From: Escherichia phage vB_EcoS-IME253
Sequence record: NC_047810.1
Strand: one strand, 5' to 3'
Length of the DNA: 46,717 nucleotides
Both the position numbers and the translations under genes were made by a program. The notes beneath the pieces are model-generated. The model searched no databases and was not told the DNA's origin. It saw nothing but the letters and a program-made list of their open reading frames with translations. This document shows, piece after piece, positions 11,634-43,683 of the stretch (the stretch's first letter is position 1; every line of letters begins with the position of its first letter).

Positions 11634-11711
11634 GCTCTGCTAGCTCAACAGGATAGCAGCAACGACCTTCTAAGTCGTAGGTTACTGGTTCGAATCCAGT
11701 GCGGAGCGCCA
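11634..11711 (+). tRNA. tRNA-Arg (anticodon UCU)
   Basis: Hand-folded cloverleaf: acceptor GCUCUGC/GCGGAGC, D-loop with GG, anticodon stem ACGAC/GUCGU with loop CUUCUAA, T-arm ACUGG-UUCGAAU-CCAGU, discriminator G and encoded CCA. Confidence 0.75.
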
Positions 11712-12338: not shown

Positions 12339-12845
12339 ATGAGCAAAGCAGCATTAAAGATGGGTGAGGGAAATTTCAAGGCGCTCTACAACAAGAAGTA
12401 TGGCGACATTGCTATGGTGGCAATCAACCGCAAGTACACGCCTGAGGAAGTTTTTGACTTCGCTGTTCGATACTTCTCTTGGGCAGAGAGTGAGGCAATC
12501 AAGGCTATTGAGACGGCAGCATTCCAGGGGGTTGTTGGTGAAAGCCTCGTACATAAACCGCGAGTATTCACCTTGACGGGGCTTGCGCTCTTCATGGGTG
12601 TTAATATCAATAGATTCGCTCGCTGGCGCACTGAGGCTGGATACTCTGATGTTATGGAATTCATTGATAACGTAATCTACGAGCAGAAATACCAACTTGG
12701 CGTTGCAGGCATTATCAACTCCACCATCGTTGGTAAAGAGCTTGGCATTGATAAGCCACAGGAGATTACCATCAGTAATAACTCTACAGCTAACGACGTT
12801 GATAGCATGAAGGAAGCACTGGAATCTGTGATTGGTAAATTATAA
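12339..12845 (+). CDS. terminase small subunit (putative)
   Basis: 168-aa ORF directly upstream of terminase large subunit; RBS aaggagg; promoter-like extended -10 upstream. Confidence 0.55.
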   Translation: MSKAALKMGEGNFKALYNKKYGDIAMVAINRKYTPEEVFDFAVRYFSWAESEAIKAIETAAFQGVVGESLVHKPRVFTLTGLALFMGVNINRFARWRTEAGYSDVMEFIDNVIYEQKYQLGVAGIINSTIVGKELGIDKPQEITISNNSTANDVDSMKEALESVIGKL

Positions 12846-14902: not shown

Positions 14903-14914
14903 TTGGAGAAAAAC

Positions 14915-16183
14915 ATGGTCAAGACAGACAGCTACGCCAATATCTTTCTCGGCGGTAGTGATGGTAGTGAGATTTACGGGAGCTTGCAGAACCAGGCTCC
15001 TACAATTCTGGCTTCGCTATATGCGGACAATGCTCTGGTGCGTCGAATTATCGACACAATCCCGGAGACAGCATTGGCGGCAGGATTCCATATTGACGGC
15101 ATTGATGACGAACCTGCATTCTGGTCGAGATGGGATGATTTGGAGATGACGCAGAATATCAACGATGCCTGGTCATGGGCCAGATTGTTCGGTGGGGCTG
15201 CTATTGTCGCTATCGTCAAGGACAATAGAGCATTAACAAGCCCCGCCAGGGAAGGCGCTGAGCTTGAAACCGTTCGCGTTTACGACCGCACTCAAGTGAA
15301 AGTTCAGACTCGCGAGGAGAATCCGCGCAACGCACGTTTTGGTAAGCCATTAACCTATCGCATCACAACTAATGAGAGCGATATGTTCTATGATGTTCAT
15401 TACAGCCGCATTCATATCATCGATGGCGAGCGAATCCCTAACGTAATGCGTCGGCAAAATGACGGCTGGGGCCGTAGCGTTCTATCCAGTGACATTCTTG
15501 ACTCAATCAAGGATTACACCAACTGTGAACGACTTGCTACGCAATTACTGAAACGTAAGCAGCAAGCGGTATGGAAAGCCAAAGGTCTGGCTGAACTGTG
15601 TGATGATAGCGAAGGATTTGGTGCAGCAAGATTACGCCTGGCCCAGGTTGACAACAATAGCGGTGTTGGTCAGGCGATTGGCATTGACGCAGAATCTGAA
15701 GAGTACAGCGTTCTAAACTCTGATATTGGCGGCATCGACGCGTTTCTGGATAAGAAGTTCGATAGAATCGTTGCTCTGAGCGGCATTCATGAAATCATCC
15801 TGAAGAACAAGAACGTTGGAGGGGTATCATCAAGCCAGAATACGGCACTGGAGACATTCCACAAGCTGGTTGACCGCAAGCGCAATGCTGAGTTGCTCCC
15901 TATTCTTGAGTTCTTGATCCCGTTCATCGCGAACGCAGAAGAGTGGTCAGTTGAGTTTAATCCGTTGGCTCAGGAATCAAGCAAGGATAAGGCCGAGATT
16001 CTTGAGAAGAACGTAAACAGCATTGCGGCACTAATTGCGGCAGGCGCTATGGATATCGACGAGGCTCGTGATACACTACGAACTATAGCCCCAGAGGTTA
16101 AGATCAATGATGGTTCAGTAGAGACAAAGGTGACAATTAGTGAAACCAGTAACGACCCGTTGGAAGTACCCACAGACAATTGA
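14915..16183 (+). CDS. portal protein
   Basis: About 420 aa, directly after terminase module; ATG 14915 with ggag 6 nt upstream (track start 14903 is TTG). Confidence 0.75.
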   Translation: MVKTDSYANIFLGGSDGSEIYGSLQNQAPTILASLYADNALVRRIIDTIPETALAAGFHIDGIDDEPAFWSRWDDLEMTQNINDAWSWARLFGGAAIVAIVKDNRALTSPAREGAELETVRVYDRTQVKVQTREENPRNARFGKPLTYRITTNESDMFYDVHYSRIHIIDGERIPNVMRRQNDGWGRSVLSSDILDSIKDYTNCERLATQLLKRKQQAVWKAKGLAELCDDSEGFGAARLRLAQVDNNSGVGQAIGIDAESEEYSVLNSDIGGIDAFLDKKFDRIVALSGIHEIILKNKNVGGVSSSQNTALETFHKLVDRKRNAELLPILEFLIPFIANAEEWSVEFNPLAQESSKDKAEILEKNVNSIAALIAAGAMDIDEARDTLRTIAPEVKINDGSVETKVTISETSNDPLEVPTDN

Positions 16184-21757: not shown

Positions 21758-22414
21758 ATGGCCCATCTCAGCAATGGCACGCAGGTCTTCGTAGAAGGCT
21801 CTCGCGGAGCTGCAATCGACGTAACTGCAATTTCTAACGCAGTTACCCCTGTTTTAACTGTATCTGACGCGTCTGGTTTGGTCGTTGGTGATTACCTGCT
21901 TTTCACCTCTTCTGCTTCAACGCTTCTAGCTGACAAGCAAGTTCGAGTGACTGCAATCACTGGTACGTCAGTAACTGTTGAAGGTATTGATACCTCCAGC
22001 ACCACAAAGTTCCCGGCTGGCTTAACTGGTGAAGTTGTCAAGATCACCTCCTGGTTCGAAGTTCCGTGCGTTCAGGACGTATCTACTGACGGTGGCGAAC
22101 AGCAATTCGTTAACTTCCAGTGCTTGTCCGATGACCGTGAACAGCAGATTCCGACCTATAAATCTGCGGTAACTAACACCTTCACCTTCGCTCACGAGTA
22201 CACCAACCCTGTATATCCGGTTCTGCGTAACTACGATGAGTCTGGCCAGGTTGTTGCGATTCGTCTGTTCGTACCTCGAGCTAGCGAAATGCGCTTGCAG
22301 TCCGGCACTATCGCTTTCAACGACACCCCTACCATTGGTGTTAACGAAATCGAAACGGTATCCATCGCAGTATCAATTCGTGGTCGCCTGTCCTCTGTGG
22401 CAGCTGAAGTTTAA
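21758..22414 (+). CDS. major tail protein
   Basis: 218 aa, strong RBS, own terminator, position before chaperones and tape measure. Confidence 0.6.
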   Translation: MAHLSNGTQVFVEGSRGAAIDVTAISNAVTPVLTVSDASGLVVGDYLLFTSSASTLLADKQVRVTAITGTSVTVEGIDTSSTTKFPAGLTGEVVKITSWFEVPCVQDVSTDGGEQQFVNFQCLSDDREQQIPTYKSAVTNTFTFAHEYTNPVYPVLRNYDESGQVVAIRLFVPRASEMRLQSGTIAFNDTPTIGVNEIETVSIAVSIRGRLSSVAAEV

Positions 22415-22421
22415 AACACAA

Positions 22422-22444
22422 ACCCTCTTCGGAGGGTTTTTTAT
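22422..22444 (+). terminator. rho-independent terminator after major tail gene
   Basis: hairpin ccctc-ttcg-gaggg followed by T6. Confidence 0.65.
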
Positions 22445-22447
22445 TGC

Positions 22448-22491
22448 ATAGCACTTTTTGCTAAAGCACTTATTCAGCTTTACTGTATAGT
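22448..22491 (+). promoter_or_regulatory. palindrome-plus-hexamer element (copy 9)
   Basis: atagcactttttgctaaa; TATAGT 22486-22491; leader tctcatcgaaacgaa; next ATG 22525. Confidence 0.5.
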
Positions 22492-22524
22492 TATCTCATC
22501 GAAACGAAATGAGAGATTAAAGAA

Positions 22525-22773
22525 ATGAATAACGTTAAAAACATCATCAAACTTGCTGCAGTTCTTGTTGCTTTTTATGCAGTAGTTCAGATTGTTAACC
22601 CAACTGGTGAGGCTGATGCCAATAGCAAGGCAAACAAATATACCGTTGAGTTCGCTAAAGCTGAGCGAGCATGTCAGGAGCTTGTGGGTAGTAAAGTTGA
22701 CCAAATCATGAAATATGGCAAAGAGGTCTGCAAGGACTCAGCTGCTAAGATTGCAAAAGAAAGCACTAAGTAA
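22525..22773 (+). CDS. small secreted/membrane protein (82 aa) inserted in tail module
   Basis: N-terminal hydrophobic segment IIKLAAVLVAFYAVVQIV; preceded by element 22448-22491 and conserved leader. Confidence 0.45.
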   Translation: MNNVKNIIKLAAVLVAFYAVVQIVNPTGEADANSKANKYTVEFAKAERACQELVGSKVDQIMKYGKEVCKDSAAKIAKESTK

Positions 22774-22812
22774 TAGAATACATACTCACAAACAATAAGA
22801 GGATTAACTAAG

Positions 22813-23127
22813 ATGGCTAAGTTCAAACTTTCACTGGCAGCACTCCCTGACTTCAAGCTTCCGGTAAAATTCAAGCTGGCTAACGACCAGGATGTAGAGG
22901 TTATCTTTACAGTCAAGCATAAGAAAACATCTGAGCTTCAGGAGCTTTTGCAGAAAGAAGACTTGAGTACTAAAGAATTGATTATGGCAATCGCCTCTGA
23001 TTGGGATTTGGAAGAAGAATACAACGAGGATAACGTTAATGAGTTCTCCGACCTGTTCCCAGCGTCAACGGTTGCACTGACTACCGCTTACATGCAGGCA
23101 CTGGCAGGCCAGCGGGTAAAAAACTAA
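22813..23127 (+). CDS. tail assembly chaperone (gpG-like)
   Basis: 104-aa acidic protein upstream of tape measure; ends just after slippery heptamer AAAAAAC. Confidence 0.55.
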   Translation: MAKFKLSLAALPDFKLPVKFKLANDQDVEVIFTVKHKKTSELQELLQKEDLSTKELIMAIASDWDLEEEYNEDNVNEFSDLFPASTVALTTAYMQALAGQRVKN

Positions 23128-23447
23128 AGAGGGCGGTGTATCTACAGTACCAGTCAGATCCAACTGATGCCGAACTGGAAGCTATTGGGATGCGCCGCTC
23201 TGATTACGAAGATGAAGAGCCTGAAGTTTTACACTTCGACGACAACATGATGAAGGCTTGGGACATTTATTGTTCAATGGCCACGCAATGGAGGGTTGGA
23301 GCTAACGGAGCTACAGGGTTAGATTACAACGTGCTAAATTTCCTCTTTAGAGTGTATAATGTCTCAGAAGAAGAATTGGTGCTCAGTGATTTACGCATCC
23401 TTGAAGCTAAGGCTCTCGAGATGATGGATAATCTGAGAAAAAAATAA
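22813..23447 (+). CDS. tail assembly chaperone G-T fusion via -1 programmed frameshift
   Basis: Slippery heptamer A AAA AAC at 23118-23124; -1 frame is open through 23447 (the 23136..23447 ORF). Confidence 0.45.
23118..23124 (+). other. slippery heptamer for -1 ribosomal frameshift
   Basis: aaaaaac in X XXY YYZ register relative to the G reading frame, 1 codon before its stop. Confidence 0.5.
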
Positions 23448-23470
23448 CCCGCTTCGGCGGGTTTTCTATT
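23447..23470 (+). terminator. rho-independent terminator (partial) before tape measure gene
   Basis: hairpin acccgc-ttcg-gcgggt followed by tttctatt. Confidence 0.45.
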
Positions 23471-23482
23471 ATGGAGGCTTAG

Positions 23483-26458
23483 ATGGCAACAAATGAATTA
23501 GCCGGAATCACACTAGCCGTAGACGTCTCGCAGGTAGACAGAGGTACACAGTCCCTGCGGAAGTTCAGGCAGGCAAACCAGCAGGCCGCTTCCGGCATTA
23601 GTGAGTTCGTCAACGCCGAGCAGGTTGCAAAGAATCAAGCCAGAGACACAGCTCGCGCACTGGCTGAACAGCAATCATCTTTGGCTAAATTGCAAACGGC
23701 TATTGACCCAACTGCGGCAAAGTTCCGTAAACTCCAGGAGGCTGCTGTAGGTCTTGATAAGGCTTTCGCGGCTGGAGTAGTTCCTGATGAGGAGTTTTTC
23801 CGCTTAGGTGAGGCGCTTGAAACGCAGAACGCAAAACTTGCTCGTTCACGTGCGGCACTAACTGAAGAGGGTAGAGCGGCGGCGCAAGCTGCAAAGGATA
23901 AGGCAAAGGCAAAGGCTGAAGCGGATAGATTCATTGCATCACTTGAGCGTCAGGCTCAGGCGGCAACATTGACGCGAGAGGAGTACCTAAAGTTACAAGC
24001 GGCCCAGCTTGGCGTAAGTTCTCAGGCGGCGCCTATTATTGACAGAATCGCCGATGCATCACGGAAGGCAAACACCCAGCTAATTGCTCAGAGCAAGGCC
24101 TTTCAACGCTCTGGCTTAAGCGCAGGTCAATACAAGGCTGCAATCTCTCAATTGCCAGCGCAGATTACAGATATTGGGACATCACTTGCTGGCGGCATTC
24201 CGATTTGGCTTATTGCAATTCAGCAAGGTGGACAAATTAAGGATGCATTTGGAGGTATTGGTAACACATTTAGTTTTGCGCTTGCTGCTTTAAACCCGTT
24301 CAACGTAGCAGTTGGGGTTCTCGGTGGCGCGCTTGTTGCTTTAGGCGTCGGTGCTGCGCAGGCTGAAAGTGAATTCAGGGCGTTAAACTCCGCCATTGCG
24401 TTCTCAAACAACTCCACAATCGCATCAATCTCGCAGGTTAGAGAGTTGGTTAGCTCTGTTTCTGATGCCACTGGTGCAACCAGAGGACTTGTGACTAGCA
24501 TCGCAACAAGCCTTGTTGAGCAAGGAAACCTTACGCTAACGCAGATTGACAAGATTACTAAATCAACAGCCAGATGGGCTCAGTTGACAGGTAAGGATGC
24601 AAAGGAAATTACTGGTTACTATAACCAGATTGCGAGCGACCCAATTCAAGGACTTGCTGATTTAGACAAGAGGTTTAACTTCCTTACACAGGGGCAGTTA
24701 ACAACAATTGAAAGATTGAGAGAGACTAGGGGTGAGGTTGAAGCCGTAACTGCTGCTATTGATATATTTAGCAAATCACAAGAGGCAAACCTTAACGATA
24801 TTGCAGCCCAGCTTACTCCTCTTGAATTGGCCTGGAATGACTTCAGGAAGTACATATCTGATGTATGGGATGCAATTAGTCGCAGAACGGTTGGGGCGCT
24901 AAACCTGTTTGTTGACGTAATCGCCGGAACAATTGAGCAAATTAGGGTCTTCATCAACCAGGGTGATGTGCTGATTGGTGAATTCGTAATTAGCGCAACA
25001 CAGGCACTGCAGAACATCCCCGGCCTTGATGGTGTTGGTGATGATGTTGTCAAGGGACAGCAGAAGATTATCGATGCCGCTAAGAAGCAAAACATTGAGC
25101 TAGAGAAGTCTATCAAGGAGCGCGATGCCAGAATCAGAGAAGGAGAACTTGGCTACGTTACTCGCAGAGAAAATCAGAATACCAATGAGCAGTCAGGCAC
25201 GGATGAGGAGTTTGCAAAAAGGAAGAAAGCGCTTCAGGATGAACTTGATGCGATCAAGAAGAGCAGGAAAGAAGAAAATGGTAGGGTTAAAGAGCAAAGA
25301 GACCTTACAATTGGTTACGAATCTGGCGTACTTGCACTACAGGCACAACTCAAGGTGCTTCAGGAAAACAGGGATATTGGCGCAGTAATAAGCAATGAGC
25401 GCAAGCAGTATCTTCAGGAGGTTGCAAAATTCCAGATTCTTGAGCAAAGGCAGCGTGATGGCTCAATAAAAAAAGAGCAAGCAAGACTTCTCATTGAAAA
25501 GGATAAAGTTCTTGAGTTGGCCAGGCAGAAGGCTGAGCTAGGTGATCAGATTGTTTTGCAAGAAAGAGCCAATAAGTTGGCTGAAGATAACCGCAAGAAG
25601 ATTCTTCAGATTAACAATGAGGCAAGCAATATTGATTTGGGTACTGGATTATCATCTCGTGAACTGCAAAGAGCCAAAGAGATTCAGGCTCTTCAGTCCA
25701 ATCAGGTCAATGCTGGTGGCTCTCTTGATGACGTTGATTTTCAGCAGCTACTGGAAGCAAGACGTAACTTTTATGCCCAGGAGGATGCGCTACGTGAAAA
25801 CTGGCTCGCTGGTGTTAATCAATCCTTTGCCAATTGGGCTGAGAGCGCGACGGATGCATTCTCAATTGCTGGAAGTTTAACCACAACAGTCTTTGAAGGC
25901 ATTACCGACCAGATTACAAACCTCGTAACAACTGGCGAAACAAACTTCAGAGAGTTTACTGTTAGCATCCTTAAACAGATTGCTAAGATTGCAACTCAGC
26001 TTCTTGTTGTAAAGGCCATCGAATCTAGCTTAAGTAGCTTCGGTGGTACTGGTGGCGCTATTGGATCGATTGCATCTGGCTTGGGTTTTGCTGGTGGCGG
26101 CTACACCGGCAATGGCGGCAAGTACCAACCGGCAGGAACGGTACACCGTGGTGAATTTGTATTCACAAAAGAAGCGACGAGCCGAATTGGTGTGAAAAAC
26201 CTTTACGCGCTAATGAAAGGTTACGCAAACGGCTGCGCTGTAGGTGGTCCTTCAGGCTATGCAAATGGGGGTTTGGTTTCTGGTGGAACAGATGTTAATG
26301 TTAGCGGAATAACTGTTAACGTTAATGGCGGTGTTGGTAGCGACCCAGAACAAGCCAAAGCATTGCAGAGTGGCGTTAAGGCAATCGTAGCGGAAGAGAT
26401 TGCTCAGTCCTTCCAGCAAGGAGGAAAAGCGTATGCCTATCTGAGAGGTTTTAACTAA
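23483..26458 (+). CDS. tail tape measure protein
   Basis: 991 aa, coiled-coil rich with Gly-rich C-terminal part; downstream of G/G-T chaperones. Confidence 0.8.
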   Translation: MATNELAGITLAVDVSQVDRGTQSLRKFRQANQQAASGISEFVNAEQVAKNQARDTARALAEQQSSLAKLQTAIDPTAAKFRKLQEAAVGLDKAFAAGVVPDEEFFRLGEALETQNAKLARSRAALTEEGRAAAQAAKDKAKAKAEADRFIASLERQAQAATLTREEYLKLQAAQLGVSSQAAPIIDRIADASRKANTQLIAQSKAFQRSGLSAGQYKAAISQLPAQITDIGTSLAGGIPIWLIAIQQGGQIKDAFGGIGNTFSFALAALNPFNVAVGVLGGALVALGVGAAQAESEFRALNSAIAFSNNSTIASISQVRELVSSVSDATGATRGLVTSIATSLVEQGNLTLTQIDKITKSTARWAQLTGKDAKEITGYYNQIASDPIQGLADLDKRFNFLTQGQLTTIERLRETRGEVEAVTAAIDIFSKSQEANLNDIAAQLTPLELAWNDFRKYISDVWDAISRRTVGALNLFVDVIAGTIEQIRVFINQGDVLIGEFVISATQALQNIPGLDGVGDDVVKGQQKIIDAAKKQNIELEKSIKERDARIREGELGYVTRRENQNTNEQSGTDEEFAKRKKALQDELDAIKKSRKEENGRVKEQRDLTIGYESGVLALQAQLKVLQENRDIGAVISNERKQYLQEVAKFQILEQRQRDGSIKKEQARLLIEKDKVLELARQKAELGDQIVLQERANKLAEDNRKKILQINNEASNIDLGTGLSSRELQRAKEIQALQSNQVNAGGSLDDVDFQQLLEARRNFYAQEDALRENWLAGVNQSFANWAESATDAFSIAGSLTTTVFEGITDQITNLVTTGETNFREFTVSILKQIAKIATQLLVVKAIESSLSSFGGTGGAIGSIASGLGFAGGGYTGNGGKYQPAGTVHRGEFVFTKEATSRIGVKNLYALMKGYANGCAVGGPSGYANGGLVSGGTDVNVSGITVNVNGGVGSDPEQAKALQSGVKAIVAEEIAQSFQQGGKAYAYLRGFN

Positions 26459-26501
26459 TAGCACTAAATGGTAAAGCCAAAAGGATTTGGCTTGCTACAA
26501 T
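26458..26501 (+). promoter_or_regulatory. palindrome-plus-hexamer element (copy 10, variant)
   Basis: atagcactaaatggtaaa after TAA of tape measure gene; TACAAT 26496-26501 (22-nt spacer); next ATG 26530 (HNH). Confidence 0.4.
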
Positions 26502-26529
26502 TAGTGAAAATTAACATGAGGTTTAAAAG

Positions 26530-27000
26530 ATGAACTGGAATTATGTTTTTGAGTATAGAGAGGGTGTTCTTTATTGGAAGGTAAAACCAGCCATACAATA
26601 CAATATTGGCGATGTTGCTGGTTTCTTTTGTGAAAAGAGAGGTTACATAATCGTTCAATACAGGCGTGTAAAGGTAATGGCCCATAGGGTTGTATGGGAA
26701 ATGTTTAATGGAAGAATAGCTGATGACATGGAAATTGATCACATTGACCACTCTAGAAAAAACAACAACATATCAAACCTAAGACTGGTAACGAAGAGTG
26801 ATAACATGAAAAACAAAAGCATGTACTCATCAAATAAAACTGGCGTTGTCGGGGTTAGTTACTGCAAAACAAAGAAAAAATTTATATCAAAGATAGGTAA
26901 GAGAATTCTATTAACAACAAGCAATTTTGAAGAGGCTGTAAAAGCGAGAAAAATCGCAGAGATAGCCCTTAATTATCACAAAAATCACGGGAGTAAATAA
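26530..27000 (+). CDS. HNH homing endonuclease with AP2-like domain
   Basis: YWK..HR..WE...EIDHIDH..NNN..NLR.V..SDN motif; inserted between tape measure and tail tip gene M. Confidence 0.65.
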   Translation: MNWNYVFEYREGVLYWKVKPAIQYNIGDVAGFFCEKRGYIIVQYRRVKVMAHRVVWEMFNGRIADDMEIDHIDHSRKNNNISNLRLVTKSDNMKNKSMYSSNKTGVVGVSYCKTKKKFISKIGKRILLTTSNFEEAVKARKIAEIALNYHKNHGSK

Positions 27001-27001
27001 T

Positions 27002-27352
27002 ATGGCTCTAGATACGTTTAATTTTTGTACTCAGGTTCAGAGTGGCGGCGGCTCATTTACCAACGCAAGCAACGTGAGGAGTGTTTCATTCGGTAATGGC
27101 TACACCCAAATTGGAACCGGAGGCTACAGAACTAACAAGCGCACTTACAACATGACCTACACCAACACTAACTGGAAGGAAGTGTTAGACTTCTGTTTTG
27201 CGCACATCATTACACCTTTTGCGTGGACCACGCCACAAGGCGATACATCAATGTTTGTTATTCAGCAGGATAGCATTAGCGTCACACCACTCAGTAAGGA
27301 AGTTCAGACTGTAAATATGCAATTCGTAGAAGTTTTTAGCTCAATGCGTTAA
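27002..27352 (+). CDS. minor tail protein M (lambda gpM-like)
   Basis: 116 aa; position and order M-L-K-I-J. Confidence 0.6.
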   Translation: MALDTFNFCTQVQSGGGSFTNASNVRSVSFGNGYTQIGTGGYRTNKRTYNMTYTNTNWKEVLDFCFAHIITPFAWTTPQGDTSMFVIQQDSISVTPLSKEVQTVNMQFVEVFSSMR

Positions 27353-27355
27353 ACT

Positions 27356-27380
27356 AAGCCCCATTAGGGGCTTTTTTTAT
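27356..27380 (+). terminator. rho-independent terminator fused to gene L RBS
   Basis: hairpin agcccc-atta-ggggct, T7, then attggagaaatatATG. Confidence 0.6.
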
Positions 27381-27391
27381 TGGAGAAATAT

Positions 27392-28147
27392 ATGTTAAGT
27401 CCAAAGTTTGAAAATCAGTTGCAAAGCCTTTTCCCTGGAGAGATTGTGACTCTAATTCAGGTTGACGGCACGTCGTTTGGTTCTCGCGTTTACAATTTCC
27501 ACAATGAGAACATTTCATACACACCTGAAGAAATCATGCTAGCCCAAATGAATGGCGAGCCACTACCAGAGAAAACCATCACCTTTCGTGGTGAAGAGTA
27601 TGGCCCCAGACCTTTTGGTATCTCGGGCATCAATATGACCTCTGACGGCAAAGCCAACAAAGTGACGCTAACGGTGTCAAACGTAGACCAGCGCATTAGC
27701 GCATTGATTCGAACATACAACGGACTTGTTAAAGCTAAGGTTACCATCTGGATTACTACGCGAGATAACATCAATGAAGACGGAAGCATTGCTGATGGGG
27801 ATTATCGCAGATTCGTTTACTTCATTGAGCGACCTAAGCAGGTTGATTACAAGACGGCATCGTTTGAGCTAAGTAGCCCGATGGATATGGATGGTATTTA
27901 CATTCCAGCAAGACTTGTTCAGTCTGTTTGCTACTGGGCTTCAAGGGGCTGGTATCGCAGCGGTAATGGTTGTGCTTATGCTGGTAATAGATACTTCAAT
28001 AAGGATGATGAGCCAGTGTCAGACCCTTCATTGGATTTCTGCGCCGGAACGGTAAATAGCTGCAAGATTAGGTTTGGTGAGAATAATCAGTTGGATTTCG
28101 GTGGCTGCGCTGCAGCAAGTCTTCAGGCTAAAGCCAATCAATCATAA
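27392..28147 (+). CDS. minor tail protein L (lambda gpL-like)
   Basis: About 250 aa with C-terminal Cys cluster; ATG 27392 with ggag (track start is TTG). Confidence 0.6.
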   Translation: MLSPKFENQLQSLFPGEIVTLIQVDGTSFGSRVYNFHNENISYTPEEIMLAQMNGEPLPEKTITFRGEEYGPRPFGISGINMTSDGKANKVTLTVSNVDQRISALIRTYNGLVKAKVTIWITTRDNINEDGSIADGDYRRFVYFIERPKQVDYKTASFELSSPMDMDGIYIPARLVQSVCYWASRGWYRSGNGCAYAGNRYFNKDDEPVSDPSLDFCAGTVNSCKIRFGENNQLDFGGCAAASLQAKANQS

Positions 28148-28170
28148 AAAAGGCCCCGAAAGGGGCCAAA
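28146..28170 (-). terminator. rho-independent terminator for the antisense Rha-like gene
   Basis: hairpin ggcccc-gaaa-ggggcc with A-run on plus strand (T-run on minus). Confidence 0.55.
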
Positions 28171-28171
28171 A

Positions 28172-28714
28172 TTACCATCCAAGAGTTAACTGTGCTTCCT
28201 TGTAAAGGTTCTCCATTTCTTCTTTCCGCTGCTTCTTGACCCTCTTCCACTCAGATAGTGTCTTTCCGCAACTGCTAGCAATCTCAACCTCTGACTTTAA
28301 CGTTCCGATTAACTCATTGCATTTCTGCATTACTGATTTATTTTCTTCTTTATACTCCTCTTTAAGAATTCGCTCCATTTCGTTAAAAGCATTAATGTAA
28401 GCTTCCTTCCACTTTGCTGCCTCCTTTCCGGTAAAGCCCATTGCTAGGAATGAGAAACCATCACGTGTAATGTCATAGCAATCTAACTTCTTGTTTTGCT
28501 TGGAAATATAAGATGAGGGCCGAAAATTAGGCTCTCTAAATTCTTCGCTACAATCAAGTCCTCGAATAGCATCAAGCACGTGCTTGTGCGACTTACCAAA
28601 CTTTTCTGAAACATCCTTTGATGTGACTGTAATGCGACCATCTTTGCCTAAAGATACTAAATCGTTCATAATATACCTACCTGGTGAGTTGATTATTTGT
28701 TTATGGAGATTCAA
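28172..28714 (-). CDS. Rha-family phage regulatory protein (antisense to tail operon)
   Basis: N-terminus LVSLGKDGRITVTSKDVSEKFGKSHKHVLDAIR..FREPNF matches Rha-domain pattern; own terminator. Confidence 0.5.
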   Translation of the reverse strand: MNLHKQIINSPGRYIMNDLVSLGKDGRITVTSKDVSEKFGKSHKHVLDAIRGLDCSEEFREPNFRPSSYISKQNKKLDCYDITRDGFSFLAMGFTGKEAAKWKEAYINAFNEMERILKEEYKEENKSVMQKCNELIGTLKSEVEIASSCGKTLSEWKRVKKQRKEEMENLYKEAQLTLGW

Positions 28715-28765
28715 ATATAAAACTCCTAATAGGATTTGTCAAATCTTAAAATCATAGAGGTGAAG

Positions 28766-29524
28766 ATGTTAACACCAAAAGTTAAACTGGAAATCTTCCA
28801 GCACGCAAAAGAAGTTTACCCGCACGAATGTTGCGGGGTTGTCACGCAGAAAGGTCGCGCGCAGAAATACCACAGAATCAAGAACGCCAGCAAAGACCCA
28901 GAGAATGAATTCATCCTTGATTCAAATGAGTATGCAGACGTTCTCTTTGAGTTGGCTCACAACGAGTCAATTGTTTATGTAGTTCACTCTCATACAGGCG
29001 ATGGAGCCACAACAAGACCAAGCCCAGCGGACATTTGCAGCTGCAATGAGTGCGAGATTCCTTACGTTATCGTCAGCATTCCGGAAGGAGACATGCGGAT
29101 CCTTGAACCTTCAACCATGCCACTGATTGGTCGCCCATGGGGTCTTGGTAGCTTTGACTGCTGGGAGTTGGTAATGGCATTTCACAAGAAATACGGCGTC
29201 AAACTGAATGACTACCGCGTTAATTACCCGTGGTGGGAGAAGCGATACAATGAGAATATCTATGAAGACAACTGGATTAAGGAAGGATTTGAGCTAGTAA
29301 AAACTTCAGATATTCCTATTGGCTCAATGATTATGATGCAGGTTCAAAGTGAGGTGACAAACCACGCCGGAATCTATATTGGCAACAACAGATTCATTCA
29401 TCACCTTTATGGTAAAATGAGTTCAGTTGATATCTACTCCGATTACTGGCGAGAGCGCACTGTGCGAATCGTTCGCCATAAGGATTTACCAGAGGATGTA
29501 ATTTATGACCCAGAAACTGATTGA
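28766..29524 (+). CDS. tail assembly protein K (JAB/MPN plus NlpC/P60-like)
   Basis: HSHTGDGATTRPSPAD metalloprotease-like motif; ATG 28766 with RBS agaggtg. Confidence 0.7.
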   Translation: MLTPKVKLEIFQHAKEVYPHECCGVVTQKGRAQKYHRIKNASKDPENEFILDSNEYADVLFELAHNESIVYVVHSHTGDGATTRPSPADICSCNECEIPYVIVSIPEGDMRILEPSTMPLIGRPWGLGSFDCWELVMAFHKKYGVKLNDYRVNYPWWEKRYNENIYEDNWIKEGFELVKTSDIPIGSMIMMQVQSEVTNHAGIYIGNNRFIHHLYGKMSSVDIYSDYWRERTVRIVRHKDLPEDVIYDPETD

Positions 29525-30077
29525 TATTAAGTTAGGCTTGTCTCTAGGCCGCAAGTTTGGAAAGATTCACCAGATGGCAGTGAATAGCGTGCCAGAGGCT
29601 ATGCGAGCGCTTTGCTCTCAGATTCCTGCATTCAAGGAGTTCATGAGCAGCCACGTTGGGCAGAACACAAGATACGCAGTCTTTGTAGATGGTAAAAATG
29701 TGAACGAGCATCAAATCTCTGATTTTAGTGCCGTTCAGGAGATACGCATCTTGCCAATCCCGCAAGGCCGAAAGTCCGGCGGTTTGTTTCAGACAATTTT
29801 AGGTGCAGCGCTTATCACGGTTGGCATCTTCACTGGGCAGATTTATCTTGTTGGTGCTGGCGTATCTTTGGCAGCAGGTGGTATTTCCCAGCTACTCTCA
29901 CCGCAGGCAACTGGATTAAAGACCCAGAACAACCAAACAAGCAACAGAGCATCTTACGCATTTGGCTCGGCCGTGAACACTGTAGCTGCTGGTTATCCAG
30001 TTTGCCTTCCATACGGCTATCGAACTGTTGGCGGGTCTGTATTTAGTGCAGGCAGTTATAGTGAAGATATTTCTTGA
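29505..30077 (+). CDS. tail assembly protein I (lambda gpI-like)
   Basis: 190 aa with hydrophobic Gly-rich centre; overlaps K 3-prime end. Confidence 0.6.
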   Translation: MTQKLIDIKLGLSLGRKFGKIHQMAVNSVPEAMRALCSQIPAFKEFMSSHVGQNTRYAVFVDGKNVNEHQISDFSAVQEIRILPIPQGRKSGGLFQTILGAALITVGIFTGQIYLVGAGVSLAAGGISQLLSPQATGLKTQNNQTSNRASYAFGSAVNTVAAGYPVCLPYGYRTVGGSVFSAGSYSEDIS

Positions 30078-30134
30078 TAATTAAATTATTCTGCATTACA
30101 GTCACCTTAAGATTTACTCTTTTGGTGACTTAAA

Positions 30135-30623
30135 ATGCAAAAATTCGAGAATTACCTTTACGAGATTGATGGAAAGCTATACTGGAAGGAGGCGAGAAAC
30201 AACTCGGCCAAAATAGAGTCAGAGGCTGGATTTATTCATCATTCTGGCTATAGGTATGTTAAATTGAATGACAAACAGACTTCATCTCACAGGATTCTTT
30301 GGTACTTAAGAAATGGATTCAAGATGCCACCTAAAGGCATGGAGATTGACCATATAAATGGAAACAGGCTTGACAACTCAGCTAGTAACTTACGGATTGT
30401 ATCTTCATCGGTAAACTCAAAAAACAGGTCAAAAAGGTCAGATAACTCAAGCGGCGTTGCGGGAGTTGGATTTCATAAGTTAACTGGAACGTGGTGGGCT
30501 ACGATATCAATAAACAAAAAGAGAAAGCACTTGGGGCTATTCGTTGATTGGTTTGAAGCAGTGTGCGCCAGAAAGAGCGCTGAGAACTTAAATGGTGAGT
30601 ACACCTATAGACATGGTAAGTAA
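30135..30623 (+). CDS. HNH homing endonuclease with AP2-like domain (second copy)
   Basis: YWK..HR.LWY...EIDHINGNRLDN..SNLR.V motif; inserted between I and J. Confidence 0.65.
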   Translation: MQKFENYLYEIDGKLYWKEARNNSAKIESEAGFIHHSGYRYVKLNDKQTSSHRILWYLRNGFKMPPKGMEIDHINGNRLDNSASNLRIVSSSVNSKNRSKRSDNSSGVAGVGFHKLTGTWWATISINKKRKHLGLFVDWFEAVCARKSAENLNGEYTYRHGK

Positions 30624-30630
30624 AATCAGA

Positions 30631-30653
30631 ACCCGCCTGGCGCGGGTTTTTTA
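30631..30653 (+). terminator. rho-independent terminator after second HNH gene
   Basis: hairpin acccgc-ctggc-gcgggt followed by T6. Confidence 0.6.
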
Positions 30654-30703
30654 TTTACTGTAGAATGGCACAAATGATCAAAACAAACATGAGGCTTTGT
30701 GAT

Positions 30704-33700
30704 ATGGCTGAAGAGATTAAGATTTATGGTGCCAAGGGTGGTAGCCAAAAGCAGCATCAACCAGTGGAGCAGGAAGATAACCTAATTTCACTTAACAAGG
30801 TTAAGGTTCTTTTGGCGGTTGCTGACGGTGAGGTGGATCCTAACTTCTCATTGAAGGATTTATACCTTGCTGACGTTCCGGTACAAAATCAGGATGGTAG
30901 CTACAACTATGAAGGTGTTCGCGCTGAGTTCCGTGCTGGCACGCAGTATCAGGACTATATCGCCGGGCTTGACGGTGCTAACTCAGAGATTCAGGCATCC
31001 AGAGAAATCAAGAACGATACCCCGTACATCATTGCAGTTAACAATACTCAGCTTTCAGCAATTCGAGTTAAGCTATTCTGGCCTCGACTGGTTAAGCAAG
31101 AAAGCAATGGAGACCTGAACGGAACAACCTGCGAGTATGCAATTGACCTTTCTGTTAATGGTGGCGCTTACCAGGAATACACTCGCGGAGTTGCTAACGG
31201 AAAGACCACTACAGGTTACGACCGAAGCATTCGCGTAAACCTTCCGGCAGAATTTGATAGCGCGCTTGTTCGCATCCGTAAGATTACGCCGGATTCAACA
31301 AGTAGCACCCTGGTTAACGGTATGCAGATTACAACCTATCAGGAAGTAATTGACGCTAAATTCCGCTATCCGCTTACGGCTCTGGTTTACGTTGAGTTTG
31401 GTTCTGACTTGTTCCCTAACGGCATCCCAACAATCTCAATCAAGAAGAGATGGAAGTTGATTCAGGTTCCTACAAACTATAACCCTGAAACCAGAACTTA
31501 TAGCGGCACATGGAATGGTCTATTCAAGATGGCATGGTCAAACAACCCAGCATGGGTTCTTTATGACCTAGTAACAAACCGCCGTTACGGACTTGACCAG
31601 CGAGAGCTGGGTGTAGAGATTGATAAGTGGGGCCTGTACGAAGCTGCACAATTCTGTGACCAGATGGTTCCAGATGGCAAGGGTGGCTTAGAGCCGCGTT
31701 ACCTTTGCGATATGGTTGTACAGAACAAGGTTGAGGCTTACACGCTAATTCGTGATATCTGTTCAATCTTTCGCGGCCTGACTTTCTATGACGGCGAAAA
31801 GATTGGCATCGTGGTTGATAAGCCTCGCAACCCATCTTACATCTTCACCAATGATAACGTTGTAAACGGATTGTTCAGTCGCACATTTGCCAGCGATAAA
31901 AGTCTTTACACCACGGCAAACGTTCAGTTTGATGATGTAGAGAACAACTATCAGCAGGATGTTGAGCCAGTATTTGAGCTTGAGGCTACTCGCAGGTTCG
32001 GGTTTAATCCAGTCGACCTTACGGCAATTGGCTGCACTCGCAGAAGTGAAGCAAACAGACGCGGCAGATGGCTCCTAAAAACCAACCTGAGAAGCGAAAC
32101 TATCAGCTTCACTACCGGGTTGGAAGGCATGATTCCGATGATTGGCGAGGTTATTGCAGTTAATGATGCGGCATGGTCGAGCAACTATCAGTTGAACCTT
32201 TCCGGCCGCATTGAATCAGTGCAGGGGCTACAGGTTTTTACACCGTTTAAAGTTGACGCAGCGCCGGGTGACAGAATTCTTCTTAACAAGCCAGACGGAA
32301 GCCCGGAGGCAAGAACTATTGCCAGTGTTTCGGAAGACGGCAGAACAATCAACCTTAACACTGCTTTCAGTTTTGTAGCTCAGCCAGACACTGTGTTCGC
32401 AATTGATAAGGATAACCTTGCGCTTCAGCAGTATGTTGTGACCGGGATTCAAAAGGCAGATACTGACGGCTCTGATTCATTTCAGTACACGATTACTGCG
32501 GTGGAGTATGACCCTAACAAGTATGACGAGATTGACTACGGCGTTAATATTGTTGACCGTCCAACTTCAGTCGTAGAGCCTGATAGATTGTCGCCACCTG
32601 AGAATTTAACAGTGTCAAGCTACAGCAAGGTTGTTCAAGGATTATCAGTTGAGACGATGGTTATCGGGTGGGATAAAGCGCCATACGCTAAAACCTACAA
32701 TGTTCAGTGGAGAAAAGAGAATGGCAACTGGATTAACGTACCAAGAACAGCTAGCACAGAGGTTGATATCGAAGGTATTTACGCAGGAATTTATGACGTT
32801 AGGGTTCGCAGCGTATCAGATACTGAAAACGTGTCTGCCTGGTCTGGTATTGTAACGGTATCGCTAACTGGCAAGATTGGTCGCCCATCGGCACCTACGG
32901 TTATCACGGCGTCAACTGATGAAGTATTTGGTATCCGTGTTAAATGGGGATTCCCTGAAGGCTCTGGCGATACTGCTTACACTGAGCTTCAGCAGGTTCC
33001 AGATAATGGTGATGGTACTTACAATCCTGATAATGCAAGTTTGCTTACGTTACTTCCTTATCCTGCCTACGAATACTGGCATACGCCAATTCAGCCAGGT
33101 AAGGTGATTTGGTATCGCGCAAGATTGATTGACAGAATCGGAAATACCTCTGATTGGTCTAATTTCGCAAGAGGCATGAGTACTGACGACGCAAACATTA
33201 TCAATGATTTCATCAAGGTTGATATTGAAGGTTCAGAAGGATTCAAATACCTCGAGCAGAATGCGATTCAAAAGAATCAGGACATTCAGAATCAAGCTGA
33301 GGCAATTATCGAGAACGCACTGGCTAATGATGGCGATGTTCGCAGAATGACAAAGGAGAACGGCAAGCGTAAGGCTGAATATGTTCAGGCTGTGAATCTC
33401 ATAGCCGATGAAACTCAGGCGCGCGTAGAGGCTCTAACGGCCCTTAAGGCGCAGATAGATGATGAAGTTGTAGCATCGATTACAGAAGTTCAGACTGCAT
33501 TAGCCACAGAGACAGAAGCAAGGACTACTGCAGACACGACTCTATCAGCAAGACTTGGTGAAAATGAGGCGGCTTTAAACCAGAAGCTGGACGCATTCTC
33601 TAATGCCACATCGACTGGTGTGCAGTACGGAATTAGTCTTGGCCTGAAATACAATGGACAGACTTATTCATCCGGTATGAGCATGGAGCTTGTCGGCACT

Positions 33701-34021
33701 GGTGACAATGTTCGTAGTCAATTCATTTTTGACGCAAACAGATTCGCTATCAGTAACGGCATTGGTTCCGGCTCCGGTCAGTGGCAACTCCCCTTCGTTG
33801 TCGAGAATGGAAACGTAATCATCAAGAGTGCAGTTATCGGCGATGGCTCAATCAGTAACGCGAAGATTGGTAACTTTATTCAGTCTAATGACTGGGGTAC
33901 AAATTCAGGCTGGAGGCTAGATAAGGATGATGGATTGACGCTTAGGGGTTCCGATCGTGGCAAGATGAGAGTCCTGGACCGGAATGGAGTGGTTAGGGTA
34001 AAATTAGGATACTTGGGTTAA
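30704..34021 (+). CDS. tail tip / host specificity protein J (central tail fiber)
   Basis: About 1100 aa downstream of M-L-K-I; ATG 30704 with gagg (an upstream ATG at 30665 is also possible). Confidence 0.8.
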   Translation: MAEEIKIYGAKGGSQKQHQPVEQEDNLISLNKVKVLLAVADGEVDPNFSLKDLYLADVPVQNQDGSYNYEGVRAEFRAGTQYQDYIAGLDGANSEIQASREIKNDTPYIIAVNNTQLSAIRVKLFWPRLVKQESNGDLNGTTCEYAIDLSVNGGAYQEYTRGVANGKTTTGYDRSIRVNLPAEFDSALVRIRKITPDSTSSTLVNGMQITTYQEVIDAKFRYPLTALVYVEFGSDLFPNGIPTISIKKRWKLIQVPTNYNPETRTYSGTWNGLFKMAWSNNPAWVLYDLVTNRRYGLDQRELGVEIDKWGLYEAAQFCDQMVPDGKGGLEPRYLCDMVVQNKVEAYTLIRDICSIFRGLTFYDGEKIGIVVDKPRNPSYIFTNDNVVNGLFSRTFASDKSLYTTANVQFDDVENNYQQDVEPVFELEATRRFGFNPVDLTAIGCTRRSEANRRGRWLLKTNLRSETISFTTGLEGMIPMIGEVIAVNDAAWSSNYQLNLSGRIESVQGLQVFTPFKVDAAPGDRILLNKPDGSPEARTIASVSEDGRTINLNTAFSFVAQPDTVFAIDKDNLALQQYVVTGIQKADTDGSDSFQYTITAVEYDPNKYDEIDYGVNIVDRPTSVVEPDRLSPPENLTVSSYSKVVQGLSVETMVIGWDKAPYAKTYNVQWRKENGNWINVPRTASTEVDIEGIYAGIYDVRVRSVSDTENVSAWSGIVTVSLTGKIGRPSAPTVITASTDEVFGIRVKWGFPEGSGDTAYTELQQVPDNGDGTYNPDNASLLTLLPYPAYEYWHTPIQPGKVIWYRARLIDRIGNTSDWSNFARGMSTDDANIINDFIKVDIEGSEGFKYLEQNAIQKNQDIQNQAEAIIENALANDGDVRRMTKENGKRKAEYVQAVNLIADETQARVEALTALKAQIDDEVVASITEVQTALATETEARTTADTTLSARLGENEAALNQKLDAFSNATSTGVQYGISLGLKYNGQTYSSGMSMELVGTGDNVRSQFIFDANRFAISNGIGSGSGQWQLPFVVENGNVIIKSAVIGDGSISNAKIGNFIQSNDWGTNSGWRLDKDDGLTLRGSDRGKMRVLDRNGVVRVKLGYLG

Positions 34022-34030
34022 TAAATTATT

Positions 34031-34060
34031 GGCGGGTAAATCCCGCCTAAGGTTTTATTT
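34031..34060 (+). terminator. terminator-like hairpin after J
   Basis: hairpin ggcggg-taaa-tcccgcc then ggttttattt. Confidence 0.35.
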
Positions 34061-34062
34061 GT

Positions 34063-34434
34063 ATGGCTGGTTTGTATGGTTGGGAGATGTACGATTCTGC
34101 GGGGCGGCTTGTAGCTGACAATAGCAGCATAATGAGCAGGAGGCTATTCACTTATAGCGTGCCACTGATAAGGGCTTTATCTGCAAACATACCATGGGAA
34201 GTCTCATTTAATGTTAACTTCTCAAATGGAACGCCTTATGCGCATTGCAATACCAGAACAGGGGTGGTGGTCCCTGCATCTACTAACTGGTATCCAGTAT
34301 CACCTGATATAATAATATCTGGAAATGCAGTTACACTCAGGTATACAAACAGGCATGTTTCCTATCCGGACGATCTTGGGTACATACTTGCAGTTGGTGG
34401 TGTTGATGTTCACTTAGGAGTTTATAATAAATGA
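34063..34434 (+). CDS. hypothetical tail-associated protein (123 aa)
   Basis: ORF immediately downstream of J. Confidence 0.4.
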   Translation: MAGLYGWEMYDSAGRLVADNSSIMSRRLFTYSVPLIRALSANIPWEVSFNVNFSNGTPYAHCNTRTGVVVPASTNWYPVSPDIIISGNAVTLRYTNRHVSYPDDLGYILAVGGVDVHLGVYNK

Positions 34435-35228
34435 GTGATTATGGTGTTGAACTAATAAATGACTATGGTTTAAAGGTTGCTGACGCAGAGGATGTAAATT
34501 ACGTACTAAGAAGTTCTGGTACATTTAATGATTCAAATTTCTACTCATATGCAAACTCCACATCTGCAATTAGCCTCATGACCACAGGAATGAATTCGCC
34601 TCTTCTATTTCTAAAGATGAACGAAAGTAGGTCAAGGATAAGCCAGAAGCCTGGAGTTAACAAAATATCACCTGATTTTGTTAACCCAAATACCACAATA
34701 ACAAAGACAAGCATAGACCTATTCAAGTGGTGGAACATACCGCTAGGAACTGTAGAGTATTACATATTTGACAAGTGGATCCCGCCAGAAAGAAGTGATT
34801 ATGGAATGCAGATATTTAATGAATCTGGTTCTATAATCTTTGATTCTGGCTGGTACTTCCTCAAACTTAGGGATGTGCTATGGCTTGATCCAAGTTATCC
34901 AAACCATTCAGATCAGGAAGGTGGTAGTAACTGGACTAACGTCGGGAATATTGTCAACTCCGCGAACGTATCAAACTCAGCATTATCAATGCCTGTTGGT
35001 AGGGGGTGGGTTGAAACATCATTGCAGGGTGGGTACTACTATAATGAATGCTGTCACCTTGACTCATCCGGTAATCTATTTATATCCATAATACCTACAG
35101 GTATATACCTTGATGTTTCACCAACTGGCGGCTGGGTTGGCAATATGAGGACGCAAGTTATGGTTTGCGACACCTCGAGGCTGCCTCTTAATTACAATCC
35201 AGTTGAGATAAGAAAGGAAAACAAATAA
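34431..35228 (+). CDS. candidate receptor-binding protein (265 aa)
   Basis: Position downstream of J and convergent with a lipoprotein gene; no motif confirmation. Confidence 0.35.
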   Translation: MSDYGVELINDYGLKVADAEDVNYVLRSSGTFNDSNFYSYANSTSAISLMTTGMNSPLLFLKMNESRSRISQKPGVNKISPDFVNPNTTITKTSIDLFKWWNIPLGTVEYYIFDKWIPPERSDYGMQIFNESGSIIFDSGWYFLKLRDVLWLDPSYPNHSDQEGGSNWTNVGNIVNSANVSNSALSMPVGRGWVETSLQGGYYYNECCHLDSSGNLFISIIPTGIYLDVSPTGGWVGNMRTQVMVCDTSRLPLNYNPVEIRKENK

Positions 35229-35232
35229 AAAT

Positions 35233-35256
35233 AAGGCCCTTAATGGGCCTTCTTGT
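35233..35256. terminator. bidirectional terminator between convergent RBP candidate and lipoprotein genes
   Basis: A-rich run, hairpin aggccc-ttaat-gggcct, T-rich run. Confidence 0.5.
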
Positions 35257-35425
35257 TAAAACAATATCCAGCTGGTAAAACCGAATAAAGATTTTGATTT
35301 ACCTCTCCATTGCTGTATTCACAACCTCTAATTGTAACTGAGTAGTCACTGATAAGAACTATAGTTCTTTCACCGCCTGAACAACCAGCTAAAATCATTG
35401 CAGTGATAACGATTAATTTTTTCAT
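35240..35425 (-). CDS. small lipoprotein (candidate superinfection-exclusion protein)
   Basis: Signal peptide with lipobox LAGCSG; 61 aa; convergent to RBP candidate. Confidence 0.5.
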   Translation of the reverse strand: MKKLIVITAMILAGCSGGERTIVLISDYSVTIRGCEYSNGEVNQNLYSVLPAGYCFNKKAH

Positions 35426-42614: not shown

Positions 42615-42637
42615 TGTGTAAAGTCTCCATTTGTAAA

Positions 42638-42655
42638 ATAGCACGAATTGCTAAG
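42638..42655 (+). promoter_or_regulatory. solo palindrome copy (no -10-like hexamer at expected spacing); candidate operator
   Basis: atagcacgaattgctaag about 30 bp upstream of the tailspike start codon (minus strand); expected hexamer position reads GGCATA. Confidence 0.35.
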
Positions 42656-43625: not shown

Positions 43626-43683
43626 ATCAATCTATCTCTGAACAAATAAAAAAGGATGCACCGATTATGGCACATCCAATTCC

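Follow-up and report, generated by a model that had tools for sequence, protein, structure and literature searches.

Two optional HNH genes in the tail operon of Escherichia phage vB_EcoS-IME253 have the features of free-standing homing endonuclease genes

Phage homing endonucleases that combine an N-terminal HNH domain with a C-terminal AP2 domain are a described class, sited near structural operons: the "IPA-HNH" homing endonuclease genes (HEGs) of ICP1-like phages are free-standing, lie near structural or essential genes including tail operons, and can share one slot that is variably held by different HEGs (PMC10448857). The lineages enriched in that study are the marine Barbaviruses and Flaumdraviruses, T1-like phages being unmentioned, and the likeness to the ICP1 genes drawn here is one of description. 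The T4 genes mobE, segB, segF, and segG likewise lie between conserved genes and are present in some relatives and absent from others, with co-conversion and marker exclusion as their mechanism (PMC2988022). Among T1-like phages, sporadic repositioning of HNH genes has been noted (PMC13164509), and coliphage phylogeny is known to be troubled by gene conversion that accompanies homing endonucleases (PMC8594841). Here we describe two HNH genes, HNH1 and HNH2, in the tail-tip operon of the T1-like Escherichia phage vB_EcoS-IME253 (NC_047810.1), whose whole 46,717-nucleotide (nt) sequence is called the window below. Mobile, scattered HNH homing genes are already known in T1-like phages; two of them are ordinary for such a phage, essentially already known, and of little import beyond careful annotation. 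What the comparison provides is exact insertion sites and predicted targets for two uncharacterized HNH+AP2 enzymes, which are candidate site-specific nickases.

The phage belongs to the Drexlerviridae (Braunvirinae), and its tail-tip operon has a lambda-like gene order. HNH1 (26530-27000, plus strand) lies between the tape measure gene H (23483-26458) and gene M (27002-27352), and HNH2 (30135-30623, plus strand) lies between gene I (29505-30077) and gene J (30665-34021), with genes L (27380-28147) and K (28736-29524) in the stretch that separates them. The open reading frames (ORFs), their Pfam HNH_3 scores, and the flanking genes confirm the two positions assigned by a first-pass annotation of the sequence. 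That annotation had the genes interrupting the operon; they are indeed insertions in it, but they occupy intergenic spacers, break no ORF, and leave the flanking ORFs complete. An intron or intein location was rejected on the basis of these complete ORFs and intergenic junctions, together with an Rfam scan of the region, which found no family. Alleles that lack the HNH gene with exact boundaries exist at both sites, making intron-less homing the best reading. Judging from sequence comparison, we put at roughly 0.75 the probability that HNH1 and HNH2 were acquired independently and are free-standing homing genes whose products combine an HNH_3 (I-HmuI-like) nuclease with an AP2-type domain. The features that fit homing elements are low-G+C cassettes, intact catalytic residues, purifying selection on HNH2, and diagnostic substitutions close to the junctions (14 nt or less).

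The tail operons of fourteen relatives were read for slot occupancy, and all four states were present among them: both genes, HNH1 only, HNH2 only, and neither. At the H/M slot, HNH1 is found in the window and phiA2-1, in IME542, and in TR1; ACG-M12 carries a 52%-identical HNH there, and JeanPiccard carries an annotated HNH gene. In SCS31 and ECH1, seen as match records only, the matches span the full query and have an HNH endonuclease annotated under them. The slot is empty, with a spacer of 30 to 31 nt, in ZL19, Rao1, BEK1-1, OzMSK, DTL, Rtp, JulesPiccard, and Sd1. HNH2 occupies the I/J slot in the window and phiA2-1, in ZL19, in Rao1, and in Shigella phage Sd1 (subfamily Rogunavirinae); every other relative read is empty there. 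Both genes are missing from the tail operons of the close relatives BEK1-1, OzMSK, and the 12210I group. Orthologs of HNH1 are identical in phiA2-1 (GP15) and 94% identical in IME542 (QAU04430.1) and TR1 (UVD31778.1), and those of HNH2 are identical in phiA2-1 (GP21) and ZL19 (UMO77952.1), 99.4% identical in Rao1 (gp34), and 89% identical in Sd1 (gp29). They sit in matching slots and are already annotated, as "endonuclease" in phiA2-1 and as HNH homing endonuclease in IME542, Rao1, Sd1, and ZL19; a literature search found no paper on these particular proteins. HNH2 was present at I/J in 5 of 305 matching records (phiA2-1, ZL19, Rao1, and two records of Sd1). When IMG/VR was searched for additional carriers of either gene, the only close matches were contigs corresponding to IME542 and Sd1, which gave no new junctions.

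Junction alignments and blastn boundaries delimit the HNH1 cassette as the 543 nt from the tape measure stop codon to the M start codon (26459-27001, plus strand). HNH-less relatives have the 30- to 31-nt spacer TTAACGGGGCTTYGGCCCCTAAGGATTTTT instead, and the empty junction in ZL19 or BEK1-1 reads ...TACCTTCGCGGATTCAACTAATTAACGGGGCTT... The cassette has a G+C content of 34.4%, compared with 44.2% for the window, which places it in the lowest 0.1% of all 543-nt segments of that sequence and makes it the richest in A+T among stretches of its length. Just 1 nt separates the HNH1 ORF from the M start codon, and GGGAG, a putative Shine-Dalgarno sequence for M, lies within the final codons of HNH1. 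Across the flanks (~900 nt to the left and ~1,100 nt to the right), only two alignment columns split the five occupied from the eight empty alleles. Both lie within the codon for a C-terminal arginine of the tape measure protein (26444-26446, plus strand), 12 to 14 nt from the insertion (-14/-12). This codon is AGA or AGG in all five occupied alleles (AGG in JeanPiccard, AGA in the other four) and CGC or CGT in all eight empty ones, a synonymous difference. The window encodes a single tRNA-Arg(TCT), which reads AGA, at 11634-11711; a link between it and the occupancy-associated AGA codon is probably coincidence.

The HNH2 cassette (30078-30630, plus strand; 38.7% G+C) is 553 nt long and runs from the stop codon of I to the resident I/J terminator. 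HNH2-less relatives have the 7 nt ATATCAT in its place, the empty junction in IME542 or OzMSK reading ...GAAGACAATGCTTAAATATCATACCCGCCTAGTGCGGG..., and the cassette boundaries in Sd1, a member of another subfamily, are identical to those in the window. The empty I/J spacer is 41 nt long and identical in eight of nine empty alleles; a sequence so nearly invariant would make a good homing target. Two occupancy-diagnostic substitutions, at -5 and -1 nt from the insertion, affect the final two codons of I (30072-30076, plus strand). These codons read TCT TGA in HNH2-bearing alleles and GCT TAA in empty ones, and the C terminus of I, which differs in these codons only, is ...DIS with HNH2 and ...DNA without it. 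The first-pass annotation had given HNH2 a terminator of its own. An intrinsic-terminator-like hairpin and T-run do follow the gene (30628-30650, plus strand), but they lie outside the cassette, and nine HNH2-less relatives have an almost identical hairpin and T-run 7 nt after gene I. We conclude that this is the ancestral I/J terminator and that HNH2 was inserted upstream of it. Comparison of HNH2 with its Sd1 ortholog gave a dN of 0.076 and a dS of ~2.3, which is saturated, and an omega of 0.03 at that saturated dS, indicating that HNH2 function has long been maintained under strong purifying selection. A recent transfer of HNH2 to Sd1 was rejected, since the cassette is ~80 to 88% identical, the flanks are 65 to 78% identical, and dS is saturated.

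Both proteins comprise an N-terminal beta-rich region, an HNH_3 core, and a C-terminal AP2-like domain, which is shortened in HNH1 (156 amino acids [aa]) and full length in HNH2 (162 aa). Pfam HNH_3 (PF13392; gathering score, 24.8 bits) was matched by HNH1 at 72.1 bits (E, 2.8e-20) and by HNH2 at 51.0 bits (E, 1.1e-13), and both matched PHROG 99, "HNH endonuclease" (E, 4e-52 and 8e-55, respectively). Aligned with each other, they are 37% identical across 147 residues (E, 5e-23) and have in common the motifs LYWK, (A/S)HR, MEIDHI, and SNLR, the shared arrangement that had been noticed in the first pass. The same annotation called the genes paralogous. Each protein is, however, nearer to HNH proteins of other phages (46 to 52% identity) than to the other (37 to 39%), so HNH1 and HNH2 do not stem from a local duplication; a tblastn search of the window found no further relatives of either. 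A third HNH_3 gene, GP34 (L011 25955-26434), separates the primase gene of phiA2-1 from the gene that follows and is absent from the window (43625-43684), another presence/absence polymorphism in the HNH_3 family.

The best solved match to both proteins, in sequence and in fold, is I-HmuI of Bacillus phage SPO1 (PDB 1u3e). Its gene lies within a group I intron, whereas HNH1 and HNH2 are free-standing and have an AP2-like end, and identity to it is ~22 to 25%. The C-terminal DNA-binding part of I-HmuI is helical, not AP2-like, and its residues D74, H75, and N96 have catalytic and metal-related roles. The aligned equivalents are D70, H71, and N92 in HNH1 and D72, H73, and N94 in HNH2, and these D-H...N residues are invariant or nearly so among 30 to 33 homologs. 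The window's HNH1 and HNH2 keep all family-invariant residues, in ORFs of full length. A profile built from 33 homologs matched I-HmuI (1u3e) across the N-terminal and HNH part (E, 1.7e-13), and its C-terminal ~50 residues (110-161) matched AP2 proteins of plants and apicomplexans, namely WRI1 (7wq5; E, 3.3e-5), AP2IX-6 (5e-4), and TEM1 (9e-3). Confident AlphaFold models (pLDDT, 92.6 for HNH1 and 91.6 for HNH2) consist of beta hairpins and a beta-beta-alpha core, followed by three strands and a helix. The top Foldseek match for both models was 1u3e (probability, 1.00; E, 3e-3 and 1e-3 over 92 to 96 columns), these E-values being modest because only one domain is covered. The modeled AP2-like domain of HNH2 (strands 111-114, 119-126, and 129-136; helix 139-153) matched the AP2 domains of TEM1, WRI1, and AtERF1 (probability, 0.99 to 1.00; root mean square deviation [rmsd], 1.6 to 2.4 Å), and the shortened domain of HNH1 matched the AtERF1 AP2 domain, 1gcc (TMt, 0.61; rmsd, 2.0 Å; probability, 0.92). 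Pfam AP2 (PF00847; gathering score, 33.3 bits) was matched at an E of 0.01 or less by 20 of the 33 aligned homologs (best, 2.6e-8). HNH1 stayed below that gathering score, with 15.8 bits, or 18.7 bits for its C-terminal fragment alone, and HNH2 had no match at an E of 10 or less. The HNH-AP2 architecture claimed in the first pass is thus a fair label, the AP2 part being supported by the family profile and the predicted fold and not by the Pfam threshold.

HNH1 is preceded by what the first-pass annotation called a palindrome-hexamer element. The element is present, but it is not special to HNH1. A 21-nt direct repeat with the consensus aaATAGCACnnnTTGnTAAAA has been described for TLS, T1, Rtp, and Rogue1 (PMC11447400), and a copy of this T1-like repeat, TAGCACTAAATGGTAAAG, lies 71 nt upstream of the HNH1 ATG (26459-26476, plus strand). 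The motif TAGCAC-N4-TGSTAA has 30 matches in the window, compared with 7.1 ± 2.65 expected, and at least 14 exact copies precede genes, on both strands. Copies of the form (a)ATAGCAC-N4-TGCTAA(A), with the palindromic arms TAGCA/TGCTA, are located at 639, 6905 (minus strand), 7551 (minus), 9244, 10080, 10852, 14429, 22450, 26460, 35613 (minus), 36838 (minus), 38494, 42640, 43705 (minus), 44172, and 46673. Most are followed by a spacer of ~22 nt, a box resembling TATAGT/TATAAT, and a conserved leader (..ATCRAAACGA..GAGG..ATG); within the spacer there is usually a small hairpin with an NGGA loop, or else an inverted repeat bracketing the -10. Counted from the -10, the palindrome would be centered near -42, a placement that resembles an activator site more than a -35 element. 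At HNH1, the hairpin GCCAAAAGGATTTGGC (26476-26491, plus strand), part of the palindrome-hexamer, is followed by the extended -10-like sequence TGCTACAAT (26493-26501, plus strand), a putative promoter element. Hairpin and box are kept in all five HNH-bearing H/M alleles, the box being TGCTATAAT in four relatives and TGCTACAAT in the window. Since the motif is genome-wide and already published, a leader specific to HNH1 was rejected; the hairpin signals near these genes belong to the general regulatory grammar of the phage, not to the endonucleases.

HNH2 has no such repeat module upstream. Its leader RNA is predicted to fold into a hairpin (30092-30139, plus strand) that pairs the Shine-Dalgarno-like GGUGA and the AUG with upstream sequence (-20.1 kcal/mol; z, -5.35), a predicted fold that persists in a read-through context. 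The corresponding Sd1 hairpin is stronger (-31.7 kcal/mol; z, -8.07). The two leaders differ at only 6 of 57 positions, against saturation at synonymous sites of the ORF, and two or more of these differences keep the pairing or lengthen it. Sd1 also retains a weak promoter-like site, TTGATA-17-TACAGT (30074-30102), and RNA starting from 30109, inside the hairpin, folds no better than shuffled sequence.

Taken as homing, these features suggest the following course. In a mixed infection with an empty-slot relative, the enzyme would use its N-terminal beta-rich region and AP2-like domain to bind a long, asymmetric site that spans the empty junction or lies close to it. The D-H...N His-Me finger would then nick or cut the DNA; I-HmuI is a nickase. 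Repair of the break off the HNH-bearing genome could use the recombination proteins encoded in the window, a PD-(D/E)XK exonuclease (DUF3799) and an ERF recombinase, and would copy in the cassette with a short flank. The carrier would be protected both by the insertion, which splits the site, and by the junction substitutions that alter it (Arg AGA versus CGC/CGT; TCT TGA versus GCT TAA). Expression may be arranged so as to spare the operon. HNH1 would bring the phage's own repeat and -10 module, and HNH2 would travel on read-through transcripts with its ribosome binding site and AUG locked in the hairpin, the promoter-like site at 30074-30102 starting RNA inside the hairpin and so freeing the ribosome binding site in T4 fashion. 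T4 endonuclease genes have a ribosome binding site held in a hairpin together with an internal promoter (PMC2988022), which the predicted HNH2 leader mirrors, and a counterpart of T4 co-conversion and marker exclusion is proposed here. The T4 seg genes are of the GIY-YIG type and mobE is HNH, and T4 late-promoter logic is inapplicable to a T1-like phage. T1-like phages are thought to rely on host RNA polymerase throughout, and to our knowledge no AP2 domain has been reported for mobE.

Several observations weigh against homing. HNH1 and HNH2 are each rare among relatives (~4 to 5 records), which efficient drive alone would not predict. Five more I/J diagnostic sites lie 740 to 1,180 nt from the insertion, and the test based on such sites is weak because only two independent HNH2 lineages are available. 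The internal promoter proposed for HNH2 has 9 matching positions out of 12, and sites of this quality turn up in the region about as often as chance predicts (23 versus 20.8 expected). Exchange around HNH1 is also equivocal. Between 22.5 and 32.7 kb, the window and ZL19 are near-identical save for a block at 25983-28140, which holds HNH1, and a small patch to the left of HNH2. This pattern fits break-induced exchange, yet Rao1 breaks at the same left boundary (~25,980) without HNH1, and IME542 shares the HNH1 ORF body (~98.5% identity) but not the flanks. The block is therefore treated as a general exchange module and not as proof of co-conversion, and its reading as a co-conversion tract is weakened accordingly. 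No donor of the block with more than 88% identity was found in the phage collection save phiA2-1.

An alternative explanation for these data is that HNH1, HNH2, or both are inactive or decaying remnants of homing endonucleases, passively inherited and moved by the general exchange of modules among T1-like phages. We regard this as unlikely, although the rarity of both genes and the frequency of mosaic breakpoints unrelated to HNH presence agree with it. HNH1 differs from its IME542 and TR1 orthologs by 13 to 14 substitutions, 10 to 11 of them nonsynonymous, and the resulting dN/dS of 0.78 to 0.86 fits relaxed constraint as well as it fits small numbers. Sister copies are altered at family-invariant positions (HNH1 L84I and G108V in IME542 and L84I in TR1; HNH2 R87W, within the invariant NLR motif, in Rao1), but the window copies retain every such residue, D-H...N included, in full-length ORFs. 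Decay would also sit poorly with the strong purifying selection on HNH2 and with an HNH2 leader that is far better conserved than synonymous sites.

The same purifying selection could instead mean that the genes are kept because they benefit the phage, either by cutting the tail-tip operons of competitors and so favoring the linked M-L-K-I genes (an "HEG island," or marker exclusion) or by using the AP2-like domain as a DNA-binding regulator. HNH1 and HNH2 bracket M-L-K-I much as HEG islands do (PMC10448857), and T4 endonucleases are established agents of marker exclusion (PMC2988022). We consider a benefit of this kind very unlikely. Its competitive version shares its molecular mechanism with homing and is hard to separate from it, most viable relatives lack both genes, and the block replaced between the window and ZL19 stops at L, short of the full bracketed region. 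Some database records label homologs of HNH1 and HNH2 "DNA-binding protein," but the conserved catalytic residues speak against a purely regulatory role.

A role in DNA packaging was also raised in the first pass. The proposal that the HNH proteins aid terminase in genome cutting and packaging, as in HK97-like cos phages, draws on nothing beyond the location of HNH nuclease genes in the late, structural region and is effectively refuted by relatives without them: the tail operons of BEK1-1, OzMSK, and the 12210I group contain neither gene, and most relatives lack both. In addition, the large terminase gene is 12.1 kb upstream of HNH1 and 15.7 kb upstream of HNH2, no HNH gene adjoins terminase or portal (TerS, 12339-12845; TerL, 12865-14430; portal, 14903-16183), the P22 gp3-type small terminase indicates pac/headful packaging, and HNH1 and HNH2 belong to HNH_3 with an AP2-like domain, whereas packaging-associated HNH proteins (HK97 gp74-like) are a different HNH type. 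T1-like genomes are reported to be circularly permuted with a pac site, as in TLS (PMC4070988, PMC11447400).

Other optional genes adjoin the two homing candidates. The L/K slot of the window holds a Rha-family regulator gene (Phage_pRha + ORF11CD3; 28148-28742, minus strand; Pfam Phage_pRha E, 1.8e-31) with its own near-consensus sigma-70 promoter, TTGACA-17-TATATT (28742-28714), and terminator (28167-28152). It is the third optional insertion in the tail operon and is absent in IME542, TR1, BEK1-1, OzMSK, and Sd1. In other relatives, the L/K slot contains HNH genes (Rtp and DTL), an HNH-like ORF recognized by translation (JulesPiccard), or a protein with no Pfam match (ACG-M12), and the M/L slot of JulesPiccard contains an uncharacterized ORF. 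In all four of these phages, the L/K and M/L cassettes (L010 7838-8323; L013 5221-5736; L012 4432-4806 and 5690-6172; L004 5748-6101) begin with the ATAGCAC repeat, right behind the stop codon of the preceding gene. A broader idea, which we find unlikely, is that fixed intergenic slots (H/M, M/L, L/K, and I/J) in the Braunvirinae tail-tip operon accept interchangeable single-gene cassettes, many of which, whether or not they encode an HNH protein, open with a shared ~90-nt module (repeat, hairpin, -10, and leader). Besides acting as a promoter, that module might offer portable homology by which promoter and gene move together from slot to slot at breaks made by HNH nucleases, and HNH2, with its long-term purifying selection and hairpin-gated translation, would be a maintained competitive weapon linked to tail-tip genes and not a transient parasite.

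M, L, and the final ~480 nt of the tape measure gene behave as a single exchangeable block. Breaks occur near 25,980 in the window/ZL19 and Rao1/ZL19 comparisons, and divergence ends at the L/K junction in window/ZL19 and window/Rao1, which suggests either that parts of the tail tip are coadapted or that the tape measure gene contains a recombination hot spot. For phylogenetic work, the region 25983-28140 and the I/J region should be masked.

Terminator-like hairpins with T-runs are also found in the codirectional gaps of the tail operon, at 22420-22439, 23446-23463, 27356-27373, and the I/J site at 30628-30650; within 22400-35300, there are 21 terminator-like sites, compared with 10.9 ± 3.0 expected. 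These hairpins agree with the "transcripton" model put forward for the late region of T1.

The tail region (22483-35021) is 99.98% identical, with 2 mismatches, to that of Escherichia phage phiA2-1 (OR861626; Drexlerviridae, Braunvirinae). Near-identity is confined to ~21.5 to 37.3 kb, with 75 to 94% identity elsewhere, and the window is therefore a mosaic relative of phiA2-1. Outside the shared region, a 977-aa ORF with a Tail_spike_N domain (39711-42644, minus strand) has a far shorter counterpart in phiA2-1, GP32 (~1.1 kb). Most of the length by which the window exceeds phiA2-1 is probably due to this ORF, and the length difference may reflect a difference in host range.

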